A stretch of 64,000 nt of DNA from the NCBI GenBank assembly GCA_042563375.1, contig JBHPMF010000003.1, forward strand, positions 9,244 through 73,243, written 5' to 3'. Below are positions 8,982 to 61,346 of this stretch, piece by piece. Origin of the DNA: Elusimicrobiota bacterium (GTDB lineage Bacteria; Elusimicrobiota; Elusimicrobia; JACQPE01). A program made the position numbers and the translations under genes. How positions within the stretch are numbered: position 1 is the stretch's first letter; every line of letters begins with the position of its first letter. The notes beneath the pieces were generated by a model. It searched no databases. It worked only from the letters and a program-made list of their open reading frames with translations, and was not told the origin of the DNA.

Positions 8982-9002
8982 TTACTGTCTACCTTTATAT
9001 CT

Positions 9003-9124
9003 GGATCCCGGATCAAGTCCGGGATGAATATAATACGTCTCCGGCCCTTCGACTTCGCTCAGGACAGTTCCTTCTTTATGTGGTGAGCGGAGTCGAACCA
9101 TAGGGGACGCACTATATTCATTTT
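9003..9124 (+). repeat. D-type bipartite hairpin element (copy D1) carrying a nested E element at 9043-9101
   Basis: GGATCCCGGATCAAGTCCGGGATGAATATAATACGTCTCC ... AGGGGACGCACTATATTCATTTT. The TGA stop of the 9118..10449 gene lies inside the element end. Confidence 0.8.
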
Positions 9125-10449: not shown

Positions 10450-10458
10450 AGCTTATTT

Positions 10459-10524
10459 GGATCCCGGATCAAGTCCGGGATGAATATAATACGTCTCCAG
10501 TAGGGGACGCATGATATTCATTTT
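10459..10524 (+). repeat. D-type bipartite hairpin element (copy D2)
   Basis: Near-identical to D1 and D4. It lies in the spacer between two co-directional minus-strand genes. Confidence 0.8.
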
Positions 10525-10564
10525 ATATCTTTAATCCTTGATTGCTTTCTACCTTTCTATTTTT

Positions 10565-24669: not shown

Positions 24670-24785
24670 AAAAAGGAACGCTGAAAACCCCTCTTATCTA
24701 CGTTTATCCGCATCCACCCGCTATCTCATCTTTATTCCAGGGTCATCCTGCCCCCAGATTTTTTCTCAAAAACCCCTTTCTTTTT

Positions 24786-32335: not shown

Positions 32336-32636
32336 CATCCTGGGCATAATACTCAAAAAGTGTTGCTGATAAAAGACTGTTTTCCGAATAGAAAATGGGC
32401 TTTTAACCCCTCGATTATCAAAACTGTTTGATAATTAGAAATCATTTTGGACGCGAAACAGTGCGTATGCATCTTCTTTGTCGCCCTGAACTTGTTTCAG
32501 GATCTCATAAAGCTTCCGTCGAGAGACTTTAAAATAGCGGTATTCTCATTGAGATCCTGAAACAAGTTCAGGATGACATGAAGAAATAATGGGGTCAACA
32601 AATCAGCAACAATTTTTGACCATTATGCCCAGGATG
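32336..32636. mobile_element. MITE-like element with 35-nt terminal inverted repeats containing a second inverted-repeat element (32480-32577)
   Basis: CATCCTGGGCATAATACTCAAAAAGTGTTGCTGAT pairs with ATCAGCAACAATTTTTGACCATTATGCCCAGGATG. The inner 28-nt arms have 2 mismatches. Confidence 0.65.
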
Positions 32637-32688: not shown

Positions 32689-32795
32689 GGATCCCGGATA
32701 TTTAATACATGGATCTTTATTGCAAATGTGGAAATGTGTTAAATTCCGGGATGAATATAATACGTCTCCGGTAGGGGACGTATTATATTCATTTT
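32689..32795 (+). repeat. D-type element (copy D3) with an insertion in its first hairpin loop; preceded by an E half-element (32649-32681)
   Basis: GGATCCCGGA[insert]TCCGGGATGAATATAATACGTCTCCGGTAGGGGACGTATTATATTCATTTT. Confidence 0.75.
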
Positions 32796-32845
32796 GCCAA
32801 GAGCCTTGTTTTGTTGGATAATAGGGTTTACAAGGAATCACAATC

Positions 32846-41680: not shown

Positions 41681-42072
41681 TTAATGGACATTTCGTGTTG
41701 GTTTTTTGAACCCATTTTTATTTGAAAGAAAGTACGCTACCAACACTTTTTTGCGTTCGATATTAAGACCTCTGTGCCTGTGTAGCAATTCCTTTAATCG
41801 GCTATTAATCCCGCCTTCAATGTGATTGGTTGTTTTCGGGAAACCCTTAAAATCAAGGAAAACAAATAGATTAGGCATGGCCTGTTCAATGCTTCGTTTG
41901 AGCGCCCTGGTACGCCTGTGCGTATACCACCATACACGTTTGCCTCGCGGATTGATGCCTATTGTGCGCTCTTTCAGGAAGTCCTTATAATCAAGGGCAG
42001 TTTTTTTCTGATATCCTTGAATTTCTGTTCTGCTCCGGTAGTCGCATGGGGGATTGTCGCAGGGGAACAGGG
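41681..42072 (-). pseudogene. C-terminal remnant of a DDE transposase (ISL3-like N-x-x-EG-x-N...K...R...G motif)
   Basis: The frame is open from the trmD stop to 41681, with no plausible N-terminal or catalytic half. It ends ...FPKTTNHIEGGINSRLKELLHRHRGL.... Confidence 0.45.
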
Positions 42073-42828
42073 CTATTTTTTCAGAAGGTCGGGCCTGCGT
42101 TTTTGGGTGGCTTTCAGGGCTTGGTCAAGCCGCCATTGTTCTATCTTTTTTGTGTGTCCGCTCAGAAGTATCTTTGGCACGGATATCTTCCTCCACGCTC
42201 TTGGCCGCGTATAATGCGGCCAATCCAGCAAAAGGGCAGCGGGGTCAAAGCTTTGCTTTGCGCTTTTCTCCTGCTGAAAAGCGCAAAGCAAAGCTTTGAC
42301 CCCGATGCTGAAGGAGTCCTCTTTAACAGAAGCTCTTTCCTTTATTACGCCTGGGATAAATCTTGAGATCGCTTCGATCAAGACCATGGCAGGGGTTTCT
42401 CCTCCTTGGGTCACATAATCTCCGATCGAGATCTCCTGGTCAACATATTTGAATATGCGTTCATCAAATCCTTCGTAGTGTCCGCATAAAAGCACGAGCT
42501 GCTTTTGTTTTGACAGGGTTTTTGCGAGTTTTGGAGTGAGCCTGTTTCCCCGCGGGGCAAGGGCGATTATCCCGGGTTTGGTTTTAGGTATTTTACAGCG
42601 CTTCTTTATGTGCTCTATGGTTTTGTAGATCGGGTCAGCCATGAGTACCATACCGGGGCCTCCGCCGTATGGCCTGTCATCAGCTTGCTTATGTTTGCCT
42701 GTTGTGAAATCGCGGATATTATGAAGATGAGTTGTTATCTTGCCTGAGGCAATGGCTTTTCCTATCAGACTTGTTTGAAGAAATCCCGTGAATGTTTCGG
42801 GAAATAAGGTGATTATTTCAAAACGCAT
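42073..42828 (-). CDS. trmD: tRNA (guanine37-N1)-methyltransferase, with a 21-aa palindrome-encoded insert
   Basis: MRFEIITLFPE, DDRPYGGGPGMV, GHYEGFDER, PHYTRP and LLSGH motifs. Confidence 0.9.
   Translation of the reverse strand: MRFEIITLFPETFTGFLQTSLIGKAIASGKITTHLHNIRDFTTGKHKQADDRPYGGGPGMVLMADPIYKTIEHIKKRCKIPKTKPGIIALAPRGNRLTPKLAKTLSKQKQLVLLCGHYEGFDERIFKYVDQEISIGDYVTQGGETPAMVLIEAISRFIPGVIKERASVKEDSFSIGVKALLCAFQQEKSAKQSFDPAALLLDWPHYTRPRAWRKISVPKILLSGHTKKIEQWRLDQALKATQKRRPDLLKK
42241..42303. repeat. Perfect 63-bp palindrome (28-nt arms, 7-nt loop) inside trmD
   Basis: 42241-42268 GGGGTCAAAGCTTTGCTTTGCGCTTTTC is the exact reverse complement of 42276-42303. Confidence 0.95.
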
Positions 42829-42829
42829 A

Positions 42830-42892
42830 CAGGGTCACGTCTAAAGTTTCAAGTTTTTGCAACAAAAACTTGAAACTTTAGACGTGACCCTG
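42830..42892. repeat. Perfect 63-bp palindrome (30-nt arms, 3-nt loop) filling the rpsP-trmD spacer
   Basis: CAGGGTCACGTCTAAAGTTTCAAGTTTTTG-CAA-CAAAAACTTGAAACTTTAGACGTGACCCTG. Confidence 0.95.
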
Positions 42893-43135
42893 TTAAAGCA
42901 GGTTCTGTTTAGCTAGAAGTCTCGCAGCAGATGGGCTTACTTGCGCGCCGTTTTTTCTCCAGTAATCCAGGCGCTCTTTTTTCACGTTCGTGAGTTTTGA
43001 TTCCTTTGCTTTCGGGTTATAGGCGCCCAGAACTTCAATGGGGGGTGTTGTCACGCTTTTTGATGCTTGGGTCACAACAAGCCGGAACAACGGCACTTTC
43101 TTTCTTCCCACTCTTCTGAATCTGATTTTAAGCAT
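42893..43135 (-). CDS. rpsP: 30S ribosomal protein S16
   Basis: MLKIRFRRVGRKKVPLFRLVV N-terminus. 80 aa. Confidence 0.95.
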   Translation of the reverse strand: MLKIRFRRVGRKKVPLFRLVVTQASKSVTTPPIEVLGAYNPKAKESKLTNVKKERLDYWRKNGAQVSPSAARLLAKQNLL

Positions 43136-44828: not shown

Positions 44829-44945
44829 TATTGTTTCTCAATATGAGTCATTTTTATATTTTTATCGGTCCGGCCAGAAAATCCCATAGCACACAAAGTG
44901 TGAAGCCCCGGCCTTCAGGCTGGGGAATCTGGCGAACAAAGACCT

Positions 44946-45011
44946 GGATCCCGAAACAAGTTCGGGATGAATACAATACGTCTCCAGTAGGGGACGCATT
45001 ATATTCACTTT
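44946..45011 (+). repeat. D-type bipartite hairpin element (copy D4); contains the fmt stop codon
   Basis: GGATCCCGAAACAAGTTCGGGATGAATACAATACGTCTCCAGTAGGGGACGCATTATATTCACTTT. The fmt TGA lies at 45005-45007. Confidence 0.8.
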
Positions 45012-45952
45012 ATATTTTCCCTTAAAATATCCTGTTTTAAACCTTGAATAAAATTCCAGGCAGGCATTGCTTTTTTGCCTTCAGGCTTGACTTCAAGTAT
45101 CACAATACTGCCAGATCCACATTTTACTTTGAAACCCTTTCCTTTGACAATGTCTGTTATCTGGCCGAGGCTCCCCTTGCTCTGATCATTGTCCAATGCT
45201 TGAGCTTTGAGGATCTTGATATTTTTGCCTCCGAGCACGCAAAAGCATACGGGCCACTGCTGATAAGCGCGTATTTTCCTCACAATAATGTCAGCGCTTT
45301 CTTTCCATAAGATACGACCGTCTTCTTTCAATATTTTTTTTGAGTATGTGGCTTTTGAATGATCCTGAGGAGTCTTTGTTATTTCCTTATTGTTGATCTT
45401 TTCAAGACTGCTTAAGAGAAGCTTGATCCCAAGGTCATTGAGGCGCTGTTGGAGTTCAGGCGCTGTTTCCTCCGGGCCTATATCCGCTGGTTCTTGCAGG
45501 AATATCCGGCCGCTATCCATTCCCTCATCTATCCAGAATGTAGTCACTCCTGTCCGTGTTTCATTGCAGAGTATAGCGCCCTCAACAGGGCTGGGGCCCC
45601 GCAGCCTCGGCAAAAGCGAGAAATGAACATTCAAAAATCCTTCTTCGGGGATCGCGAGCAATTCCGCAGGGAAGATCCTTCCATAATCAACGGATATTGC
45701 CAGAAAGGGCATGAAACCTTGCATTGTCTTTAAAAATTCGGGGTCATTGAGCTGGGTTTTAGGTTGAAGGATCGTATCAATGCCAAGCTTAAGAGCTGCT
45801 GCTTTTGCCGGAGGAGGGGTTATTTTTTGGCCGCGGCCCTGAGGTTTGTCTGTTTTGGTGACAAGAGCAAGGATCTCATGAGCGGATCGTTCTTTTATCG
45901 CAGCCAAATGAGCGGCTGCTACTTCTGATGTGCCGAAGAAGATTAGGCGCAC
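45005..45952 (-). CDS. fmt: Methionyl-tRNA formyltransferase
   Basis: MRLIFFGTSE start, NVHFSLLPRLRG motif, and position directly downstream of def. Confidence 0.9.
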   Translation of the reverse strand: MRLIFFGTSEVAAAHLAAIKERSAHEILALVTKTDKPQGRGQKITPPPAKAAALKLGIDTILQPKTQLNDPEFLKTMQGFMPFLAISVDYGRIFPAELLAIPEEGFLNVHFSLLPRLRGPSPVEGAILCNETRTGVTTFWIDEGMDSGRIFLQEPADIGPEETAPELQQRLNDLGIKLLLSSLEKINNKEITKTPQDHSKATYSKKILKEDGRILWKESADIIVRKIRAYQQWPVCFCVLGGKNIKILKAQALDNDQSKGSLGQITDIVKGKGFKVKCGSGSIVILEVKPEGKKAMPAWNFIQGLKQDILRENIK

Positions 45953-60319: not shown

Positions 60320-61018
60320 TCACGCAACCCGATAAAAGAGCACGTGATACGGGAAGTCTTCATTCTTTTCTGATGGTTTGGCCGCAGGCAGAAAAATAGG
60401 GGTGACCGCGACTTTGGCGTTCAAGGGTAAAGACCAGGTCTTTTTAATGATCTGTTCTTTGGCGGACTTGGGAAGTTTTTTGGTTCCTATGTAGAAGTTT
60501 CCTGTTTTGCGGTGGACTGTGAATGGGGCGTTGGAGATCAGTTCGCAGTATCCGAGCACACGGAGATATCTAAGCATAACAGCGTCTATGACGTAGAAGG
60601 AGTATTTGATACCGGGCTTTCGCAGGGAGGCGAGGCGGAAAAAATCCGCGAGAATTTTGCCTAAGTCTTTGGTTTCAGAGGCTGAACAATGCTGCGTCTG
60701 GCGATGGAATTTGAATTCCAACCACACATCCGTATTGGGCAGTTCTATATGCATGTCGATCCCGCGCTTGGGATGCTGCTTGGCGCATGGATATTCGGGA
60801 GTTATATCATCCAGACTGATCTTGCGCCTGGTAAGTTCGTGGCAGAAGTAGCTGCGGATGCTGTCTTCACATGTAAACATTTTTCCTTTTTGGTGGCGCC
60901 TCCTCAGGGCATTAAGAGTGGCATTAGCGCAGTTGACCAAAAGAGCATGGATCTTGGGGTGCGGGCTGGTCATGGAGAAGATTTTACTGGTTTTTTGGTT
61001 CCGGGGGCACCATGGCAT
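60320..61018 (-). CDS. Orphan PD-(D/E)xK nuclease-fold protein (putative)
   Basis: E(DS)IRSYFCHEL ... GIDMHIEL.....VWLEFKF (D...E-x-K). The first 19 codons of the ORF cover a solo palindrome arm (61029-61056), so M20 is preferred as the start. Confidence 0.45.
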   Translation of the reverse strand: MPWCPRNQKTSKIFSMTSPHPKIHALLVNCANATLNALRRRHQKGKMFTCEDSIRSYFCHELTRRKISLDDITPEYPCAKQHPKRGIDMHIELPNTDVWLEFKFHRQTQHCSASETKDLGKILADFFRLASLRKPGIKYSFYVIDAVMLRYLRVLGYCELISNAPFTVHRKTGNFYIGTKKLPKSAKEQIIKKTWSLPLNAKVAVTPIFLPAAKPSEKNEDFPYHVLFYRVA

Positions 61019-61346
61019 CTCCGTAAGTGAAAAGCGCAATTCTAAGCTTTGACCCCGGTGCTTCTCTTTATTCAATATCCATCATTCAGCCCCGCTTCCT
61101 TGTGTCATTCCTGAACTAAATTCAGGACAGGCTCTGAACTCGTTTCAGAATCTCAATAAGAACACCACTCTATCTCATCCCTCAGCCCTAAGCCCTCAGC
61201 CCTATCTTCATGTGGGATTTTAGAAAAAAGTTCGAAAAGGTTTGGTTTTCAGGCTGATTTAAATAATCAAATGTACGTTTCACGTGAAGATACCCGGCAC
61301 GGTCTTCATTCTTCATTTGGGCACGCGATAAACTGTGGTACCGGGA

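Follow-up and report, generated by a model that had tools for sequence, protein, structure and literature searches.

A perfect palindrome of a dispersed hairpin family, probably inserted in frame in the interdomain linker of TrmD in an Elusimicrobiota bacterium

The trmD gene of an Elusimicrobiota bacterium, which encodes the tRNA (guanine37-N1)-methyltransferase, contains within its coding sequence a perfect palindrome of 63 nt, named here pal1. The gene is located in a stretch of 64,000 nt (GenBank assembly GCA_042563375.1, contig JBHPMF010000003.1), which was analysed as a whole and is referred to below as the window. Pal1 is probably a copy of a palindromic repeat resembling the REPINs and the Rickettsia palindromic elements (RPEs), which was inserted in trmD in frame and is translated and tolerated. 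An earlier note on the same DNA had proposed that a mobile hairpin landed in the linker between the two TrmD domains without disturbing the frame. This proposal is supported by a family of at least 120 members, by the score of pal1 under a covariance model of that family, by a solo arm in the same window and by a second in-frame case in another genome.

The first arm of pal1 (GGGGTCAAAGCTTTGCTTTGCGCTTTTC) is the exact reverse complement of the second across a loop of 7 nt, as the earlier note had stated and as the direct comparison of the window sequence confirmed (table 1). The symmetry runs 5 nt further on each side with one mismatch. The palindrome has GGGGTCAAAGC and GCTTTGACCCC at its ends (11 nt each), and matches to its arm with three or fewer mismatches were absent from all 100 dinucleotide shuffles of the window. 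As RNA, the pal1 region has a folding energy of -58.9 kcal/mol, compared with -27.1 +/- 3.2 kcal/mol for dinucleotide shuffles (z = -9.9). The solo arm, also reported previously, is real and carries three mismatches; the outer flank GCANC is common to all three arms, that is, both arms of pal1 and the solo arm.

An uncharacterised open reading frame (ORF) follows the solo arm or has it at its 5′ edge. This ORF (60320-61075, minus strand, 251 residues) is without a Pfam or NCBIfam match, and since its annotated 5′ end crosses the solo arm, the real start is probably located further downstream. Two other roles for pal1 were considered and rejected. A promoter was ruled out by the lack of a convincing -35/-10 pair, and an intrinsic (Rho-independent) terminator by the lack of a T-run on either strand, pal1 not being flagged as terminator-like.

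The product of trmD is intact except for the insert. It matches Pfam PF01746 with E = 2e-55 (187.8 bits, with the cut-off at 27.3), NCBIfam equivalogs with 287 and 270 bits (cut-offs of 220 and 195, respectively) and the Haemophilus influenzae TrmD structure (PDB 4mcb) with E = 8e-58. Read in frame on the minus strand, pal1 corresponds to residues 176-196 of the protein (GVKALLCAFQQEKSAKQSFDP), flanked by KEDSFSI before and AALLLDWPHYTRP after, and the translation of the ORF thus bears out the earlier claim of 21 additional codons between these two segments. In the alignment with H. influenzae TrmD, the insert appears as a gap of 23 columns right after DSF-xx-G. It begins three residues downstream of the D171-S172-F173 motif. 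In the H. influenzae enzyme, Asp169 is the catalytic base and the alanine mutants of Asp169 and Phe171 are inactive, and the interdomain linker is disordered when the enzyme is free and forms a helix over the G37 pocket upon tRNA binding (PMC5372744).

The length of the linker was compared among the 120 best TrmD homologues, aligned and measured from the conserved Phe (F173 here) to the Tyr of YTRP. This distance is 9 in 103 of the 120 homologues, 14 in the six nearest relatives and 32 in the protein of the window. An alignment with orthologues had been suggested in the earlier note as a check, and it showed no segment related to the 21 residues in any of the 119 other homologues; the segment is therefore an insertion. 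Half of the insert was likewise found in no homologue among the 120 compared. The earlier note had also held that removal of the palindrome restores the canonical spacing. This holds approximately but not exactly, as 11 residues are left, against 9 in most homologues and 14 in the nearest six. Since deleting 21 residues leaves 11 and deleting 23 gives the canonical 9, the true border of the element is uncertain and can be fixed only to between 63 and 73 nt. At the same point of the linker, the homologue alignment shows 5-21 extra residues in other lineages.

All the invariant and nearly invariant columns of TrmD are kept in the protein, among them D50, R156 (Arg154 in H. influenzae), D171-S172-F173 and Y206-T207-R208-P209, the C-terminal YTRP motif. 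The AlphaFold2 model of the protein with its insert has a mean predicted local distance difference test score (pLDDT) of 92.2 and a TM-score of 0.84 to the tRNA-bound TrmD 4yvi_B. Within this model, the insert forms a helix at residues 177-184 followed by coil, and the 10-residue blocks which cover it average pLDDT values of 87, 64 and 79. Its first half is hydrophobic (GVKALLCAF, the predicted helix, mean Kyte-Doolittle value +1.8) and its second half hydrophilic (EKSAKQSFDP, -1.5), because every codon of a palindrome that is translated in frame recurs as its reverse complement in the other half. Of the three frame types of the element, the one in use (GGG GTC AAA ... GAC CCC) is among the two without a stop; the third contains TGA. 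A second trmD was not found in the 64-kb window. As judged from the model and from the conserved columns, the TrmD fold and the key residues are predicted to be retained despite the insert, and the gene looks functional. The earlier note had left open whether the linker tolerates the extra residues or the insert is removed at the level of RNA or protein. Tolerance is favoured by the open frame, the kept residues, the predicted fold and the other extended linkers; nothing indicates a removal at either level.

The ends of pal1 recur in metagenomes. Metagenome contigs were scanned with a pattern of the ends only (GGGGTCAAAGC-N(24-54)-GCTTTGACCCC), and at least 120 loci were returned that carry hairpins with ends identical to those of pal1, whereas by our own estimate about two chance matches to this pattern are expected in approximately 10^12 bases. 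Among the matches listed, the hairpins measure 49-76 nt with a mode at 66-67 nt, show about 20 stem types and lie on contigs of 37-65% GC. For the covariation test, 13 stem positions outside the search pattern were available, and 24 pairs overall. All 13 unconstrained pairs have changed on both sides (378 cells), and over the 24 pairs 96.4% of the cells can pair, compared with 78% after shuffling and 33-47% with slid partners. G-U pairs (24 cells) are not enriched over the other mismatches (94 cells), and the constraint thus looks like a symmetry of the DNA and not like pairing of RNA.

The copies of this family are nearly all intergenic, with a mild excess between convergent genes, and no convincing genic copy exists among the 122 listed. 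In detail, the three to eight copies that fell within long ORFs were found on inspection to lie in antisense or spurious ORFs or at gene edges, and they were rejected as genic insertions. A-runs precede 22 and T-runs follow 20 of the 108 copies, against 2-3 in controls, and approximately one third of the copies are terminator-like. About 20% of the arms are accompanied by an extra GGGGTCA half-site, located some 13 nt outside the element and always in the same orientation.

Among the matches listed, the commonest stem type belongs to Candidatus Aminicenantes (neighboring GroEL 90-99% identical to that of named metagenome-assembled genomes, MAGs), in which several copies occur per contig, for instance three loci on one contig of 866 kb. 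One orthologous intergenic site was seen in three Aminicenantes strains (L136:6814-6897, L137:6798-6888 and L049:4390-4472), and its arms are conserved. At this same site (GroEL 97-99% identical), the loop is wholly different in sequence and in length. The centres of the Aminicenantes palindromes appear to turn over much faster than their arms. A presence/absence comparison of the hairpin in two Aminicenantes strains was abandoned, the region being too diverged for clean insertion borders.

The hairpins with the GGGGTCAAAGC box apparently form an undescribed family, with no Rfam family or published match. In detail, neither the window nor 20 family loci had an Rfam match above the gathering threshold, apart from a tRNA and an RNase P in those loci, and the permissive Rfam matches were only to generic models of miRNA-precursor hairpins, far below threshold. 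A full-text search of the literature for the 11-mer ends returned unrelated primer sequences only, and the viral contigs scanned for the hairpin family gave no match. A pattern of the arm interior of pal1 had no match in the metagenomes, so the exact subfamily and population of pal1 are not in that collection. The interior-specific pattern had five matches in reference genomes, which are attributed to chance because none of them is a hairpin. The peptides of pal1 in all six frames, joined end to end, retrieved nothing from 5.8 billion proteins, a search which missed TrmD itself too and is uninformative.

A covariance model (R1) was trained on 108 hairpins of the metagenomes and on none of the window. 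In the 64 kb it gave 65 bits to pal1 (E ~6e-15), 40 bits to pal2 (E ~2e-8), which is the second perfect palindrome of the window, and 14 bits to the next best match (E 0.12); these E-values are approximate, and R1 gives some score to every long hairpin. Pal1 belongs to the family by its own features, with both ends exact, a length of 63 nt within the range of 49-76 and a perfect stem. The ends of pal2 (AGGGTCAC...GTGACCCT) are diverged, and part of its 40 bits is owed merely to its long hairpin form. From its score and sequence, pal2 is a probable diverged member of the same family.

Pal2 spans the entire spacer between trmD and the upstream rpsP, reaching from the final base of the rpsP stop to the one immediately before the trmD ATG. 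Both the stop codon of rpsP and the start codon of trmD are thus placed at the base of the hairpin, and pal2 abuts the trmD start with zero space for a ribosome-binding site. As RNA it folds with -52 kcal/mol (z = -11.8). No T-run follows pal2 on either strand, and it is not flagged as terminator-like. In relatives, the rpsP-trmD spacers are of 12-93 nt, without a match to the R1 model.

A second in-frame case was found in a sister-clade genome, the Elusimicrobia MAG with the closest TrmD (locus L007; GCA_016209025.1, contig JACQWW010000252.1). The palindrome at L007:4632-4683 (GGGGACAGGCTGCTTTTTGCT-AA-AGCAAAAAGCAGCCTGTCCCC) scores 30.8 bits under R1, and its stem resembles the arm in the window. 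It is located in frame inside a spermidine-synthase-like membrane protein of 626 residues, between predicted hydrophobic segments, and adds 19 residues (KGDRLLFALAKSSLSPFSP). Exactly those 19 residues are absent from two orthologues of 60% identity (L132 and L133), which represent the empty site.

Extended TrmD linkers of other lineages were also considered. The DNA of six further genes was compared, with about 190 windows per gene ranked by hairpin stability. The linker inserts of P0110 (23 residues) and P0117 (15 residues) are each the top hairpin of their gene (rank 0 of ~190), the insert of P0115 has rank 1 of 198 windows, and the remaining three are not hairpins. Counting all seven extended linkers that were examined, four are encoded by a hairpin which is the strongest or the second strongest in its gene. 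Three or four TrmD lineages other than that of the window have a hairpin-encoding insert at this point of the linker. The insert of P0117 holds a perfect palindrome of 22 nt. The trmD of L008 has the perfect 22-nt palindrome AGCCTGCCTGCGCAGGCAGGCT, and that of L006 a GC-rich hairpin between 13-nt direct repeats (TCGAACCTCGAAC). No R1 match exists at these other insert positions. Since the hairpin inserts of other lineages are unrelated to the GGGGTCAAAGC family, the TrmD linker seems to have taken up hairpin DNA more than once.

Aminicenantes, Elusimicrobiota and other lineages share the 11-nt box. A wider reading, which we consider tentative and on the whole doubtful, is that the GGGGTCAAAGC-box hairpins are an unrecognised class of mobile or copied palindromes that crosses phyla and time and again seeds new peptides in essential and membrane proteins of one Elusimicrobiota clade, and that the TrmD linker is, separately, a recurrent landing pad for hairpins in several phyla. 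If this is true, the landing pad would imply either a target preference of the machinery that inserts hairpins or a functional gain from a longer linker closing over G37.

The best explanation for pal1 is narrower. The element would be a copy of a short non-coding, hairpin-forming repeat, composed of two inverted conserved units and a short spacer. Its family (GGGGTCAAAGC...GCTTTGACCCC) normally occupies intergenic DNA in several bacterial lineages, and one copy would have entered the DNA of the TrmD linker. Genic insertions of such elements would normally be lethal or break the frame, and the survivors would be those with a length divisible by three, an open frame and a tolerant loop as their target. 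The trmD gene would thus have stayed open, and its carrier alive, owing to the same three properties, namely a multiple of three, a stop-free frame and a tolerant linker. The insert would most likely be transcribed and translated, adding its 21 residues; we infer its presence in the mRNA and in the protein, with TrmD staying active. Pal2 would be a sister element, put into the rpsP-trmD spacer, that is, the type of site which is usual for the family. The element may have been transferred as one unit, perhaps in the form of a single-stranded hairpin and by an enzyme of the Y1/RAYT type; target duplications are missing, the element forms a hairpin and its layout is REPIN-like, all of which suggest such a route. 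From the dispersal of the copies, we infer that the element is mobile.

Several results weigh against this explanation. Within the 64 kb, only one doublet (pal1), one singlet and pal2 are visible. No transposase able to move the element was found in the window, which has only a truncated remnant similar to IS1249/IS256, and a Y1_Tnp gene is near a family hairpin in 1 of the 120 listed loci, which is about the chance expectation. A target-site duplication, seen as a direct flank repeat of at least 5 nt, is present in none of the 108 family copies; repeats of 3 nt flank 8 of the 108, against 1.7 expected. The trmD site has no clean presence/absence pair, the closest TrmD being ~56% identical (BLASTP). 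Furthermore, a perfect RNA duplex of 28 bp in a coding region is a plausible substrate of RNase III and a plausible obstacle to the ribosome. Because of this duplex, and because the site is beside the catalytic motif in the linker that covers G37, full activity of TrmD is not assured.

With respect to the machinery, no RAYT/Y1 gene (PF01797) was found by a motif scan of the window ORFs or among the 13 window ORFs that were Pfam-scanned, and the clustering of 685 ORFs from the 120 listed loci showed no transposase common to the loci. A single Y1_Tnp protein of 324 residues (IS200-like/RAYT-type, with a C-terminal winged-helix domain; E = 8e-15) is encoded at L078:289-1263 on the minus strand. 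It lies 1.2 kb from the family hairpin L078:2434-2501 and is not flanked by hairpins; as the only such gene in ~800 kb of listed family loci, its link to the hairpin may be a coincidence. Cut-and-paste miniature inverted-repeat transposable elements were rejected as a class for the family, because target-site duplications are missing and the whole element is palindromic, instead of having terminal inverted repeats around a core.

Other explanations concern the persistence or the origin of the palindrome. The hairpin within trmD and the one adjoining its start codon could both be kept because they lower the expression of TrmD relative to the upstream ribosomal protein gene, whether through an RNase III site, a roadblock to the ribosome or an occluded start codon. 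The trmD of E. coli, owing to the structure of its mRNA, is translated at a much lower level than the neighboring genes of the operon. The perfection and high stability of both hairpins (-58.9 and -52 kcal/mol), the end of pal2 one base before the ATG with no room for a ribosome-binding site, and the resemblance of about one third of the family to bidirectional terminators, with A-runs upstream or T-runs downstream, would all suit such a function. However, neither hairpin of the window has a T-run or a terminator flag, the relatives do without any hairpin in the spacer or in the gene, and perfect arms suit a recent insertion equally well. We regard this regulatory role as improbable, and it overlaps with the best explanation in that it concerns persistence and not origin. 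Less probable still is a palindrome made in place, in which one arm was inserted or already present, for instance as a singlet, and served as the template for the second, by template switching or by repair synthesis primed from the hairpin, with no transposition of the doublet as a whole. Arm-to-arm copying would account for the perfection of both palindromes of the window even though the family stems vary widely, and it would yield the almost exclusively Watson-Crick changes by which these stems co-vary; the Aminicenantes site with its conserved arms and replaced loop also points to active remodelling at palindrome centres. But 28 + 7 nt cannot be divided by three, so that a single fold-back copy of an in-frame arm would break the frame. 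In addition, no homologue has half of the insert, and the conserved 11-nt ends and the preferred length of 66-67 nt in more than 100 loci argue for a defined unit.

It is very unlikely that the insert does not belong to a working TrmD, either because the gene is a decaying copy backed up elsewhere or because the 63 nt are skipped through bypassing, RNA processing or protein splicing. Such a view draws on the position of the insert, three residues from the essential Asp/Ser/Phe and within the linker that folds on tRNA (PMC5372744), and on the rearrangement of the locus, where an insertion sequence (IS) remnant stands in place of the rplS side. Against it, the ORF is of full length, with every invariant or nearly invariant residue and a confident fold, no second trmD was seen in the window, and other lineages retain inserts of about this length. 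The signals of bypassing are missing too, as no stop follows the take-off codon, and the take-off and landing codons are unmatched (ATC before; CCC/GCT after). An intein needs far more than 21 residues and a self-splicing intron more than 63 nt, and Rfam gave no intron or ribozyme match. The least likely possibility of all is an artefact of assembly or library, that is, a fold-back chimera or a repeat-induced misassembly. The source is indeed a MAG, and two perfect palindromes stand within 600 bp. Nevertheless, both flanks of pal1 are contiguous and colinear trmD in one frame, which speaks against a misjoin, and its arms are not copied from the adjacent trmD. Contigs assembled independently from many samples, more than 120 in number, share its ends and its architecture, the window has a diverged solo arm at a distance of 19 kb, and the related in-frame hairpin of L007 comes from an independent NCBI assembly.

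The coordinates of the features are collected in table 1.

Table 1. Features of the window discussed in the text, with the trmD genes of other loci in the last row
Feature	Coordinates	Strand	Remarks
pal1, perfect palindrome, 63 nt	42241..42303	.	arms 42241-42268 and 42276-42303, loop 42269-42275
pal1, extended form	42236..42308	.	33-nt arms, 1 mismatch, 97% complementary; perhaps the full extent of the element
Solo arm (singlet) of the pal1 repeat	61029..61056	-	25/28 identical; similarity over 61028-61062, 31/35
pal2, second perfect palindrome	42829..42893	.	31-nt arms, 3-nt loop
trmD, tRNA (guanine37-N1)-methyltransferase, 251 residues	42073..42828	-	product identical to NCBI MFC1521090.1 (Elusimicrobiota bacterium; 83.8-kb contig)
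Codons D171-S172-F173 of trmD	42310..42318	-	H. influenzae Asp169-Ser170-Phe171; motif for catalysis and for sensing S-adenosylmethionine
rpsP (ribosomal protein S16), upstream operon partner of trmD	42893..43135	-	synteny with relatives
trmD genes with extended, hairpin-encoding linker inserts	L006:669-1427, L008:952-1692, L011:2001-2711		inserts unrelated in sequence to pal1

Directly after the trmD stop, the minus strand of the window at 41681-42079 holds the truncated remnant of a transposase (IS1249/IS256 variant, Zn-binding). It covers only the C-terminal third (profile positions ~212-322; E = 5e-19). Four relatives have rplS and a UPF0102 gene after trmD. Both are missing here and the IS remnant is present instead, which indicates that the operon was broken after trmD.

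The source genome is rich in short palindromic repeats. A composite intergenic repeat of ~74 nt with two hairpins (ATCCCGGA..TCCGGGAT and ATGAATATAATACGTCTCC..GGGGACGTATTATATTCAT) is located at 9002-9075, 10458-10531, 32729-32802 and 44945-45018 of the window. A small repeat family (CCTCCCCCCTGGTGGGGGA) was observed near 24775, 37330, 39303 and 60088, and CTGAAC..GTTCAG units at 32479-32578 and 61100-61150.

The case of trmD indicates that selfish non-coding hairpins can be converted directly to protein sequence, in what is apparently a clean example outside Rickettsia and in a poorly known phylum. TrmD is an essential enzyme and an antibiotic target, and the insert amounts to a natural experiment on the insertion tolerance of its linker, which becomes ordered over the substrate G37. 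The distribution of the 11-nt-box family across phyla is unusual for repeats of the REP/REPIN type, and a protein which recognises the box is worth seeking. Inserts of this kind can also mislead gene callers, the definition of domain boundaries and the quality checks of MAGs.

Among the known systems, RPEs are the closest in behavior. They are of ~100-150 bp, are confined to Rickettsia and relatives, and nearly half of the Rickettsia conorii copies are intragenic (Ogata et al. 2000, summarised in PMC10969869). Similarly to RPEs, the element studied here is palindromic, repeated and non-autonomous, and is found in frame in unrelated, often essential genes with a peptide compatible with the fold (PMC10969869); the in-frame cases here are two, namely trmD and the spermidine-synthase-like gene of L007. 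Unlike RPEs, it is a near-perfect hairpin of 63-73 nt, the copies of its family in the metagenome sample lie almost without exception between genes, and the hosts are Elusimicrobiota and Aminicenantes. No relation in sequence to RPEs was detectable in Rfam or in the literature. Since size and host phylum differ, pal1 is classed as RPE-like in behavior and not as an RPE.

REPINs, which are mobilised by RAYT (Y1) transposases, offer the closest likeness in architecture. Both have inverted conserved units around a less conserved spacer with compensatory changes, forming a doublet of ~60-110 nt (PMC3116915), and both show dispersed extragenic copies, which for the present family were seen across metagenome contigs, singlets that look decayed and no target-site duplication. 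REPIN singlets are regarded as decaying remnants, and compensatory changes that preserve the hairpin are common (Bertels & Rainey 2011, PMC3116915); a perfect doublet without mismatches beside a solo arm with three fits this picture. On the other hand, no cognate RAYT, a single-copy gene which the repeats usually flank, was found here among the ORFs scanned. REPIN families are described as lineage-specific and vertically inherited, whereas the 11-nt box spans contigs of 37-65% GC and at least two phyla, and REPINs are described as extragenic, whereas pal1 is inside an essential gene.

The SPRITE, BOX, ERIC and Correia families are also short dispersed hairpins, some of them terminator-like and some occasionally within ORFs, which they extend or fuse (PMC10969869). 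They differ from the present element in that the copies of the window have no T-run and no sequence similarity to them, and in being restricted to particular genera. A last comparison concerns the inserts of translational bypassing, which form hairpins too. Those of phage T4 gene 60 and the mitochondrial "byps" of Magnusiomyces are short, hairpin-forming, apparently mobile and located within essential genes, but they break the frame and depend on a take-off codon that matches the landing codon, in most cases together with a stop codon. As the frame of trmD is open and the signals of bypassing are absent, bypassing of its insert is neither needed nor indicated. Conclusively, the trmD insert is a palindromic repeat in frame in an essential gene, which is a known kind of event and an instructive one, but not a new principle.

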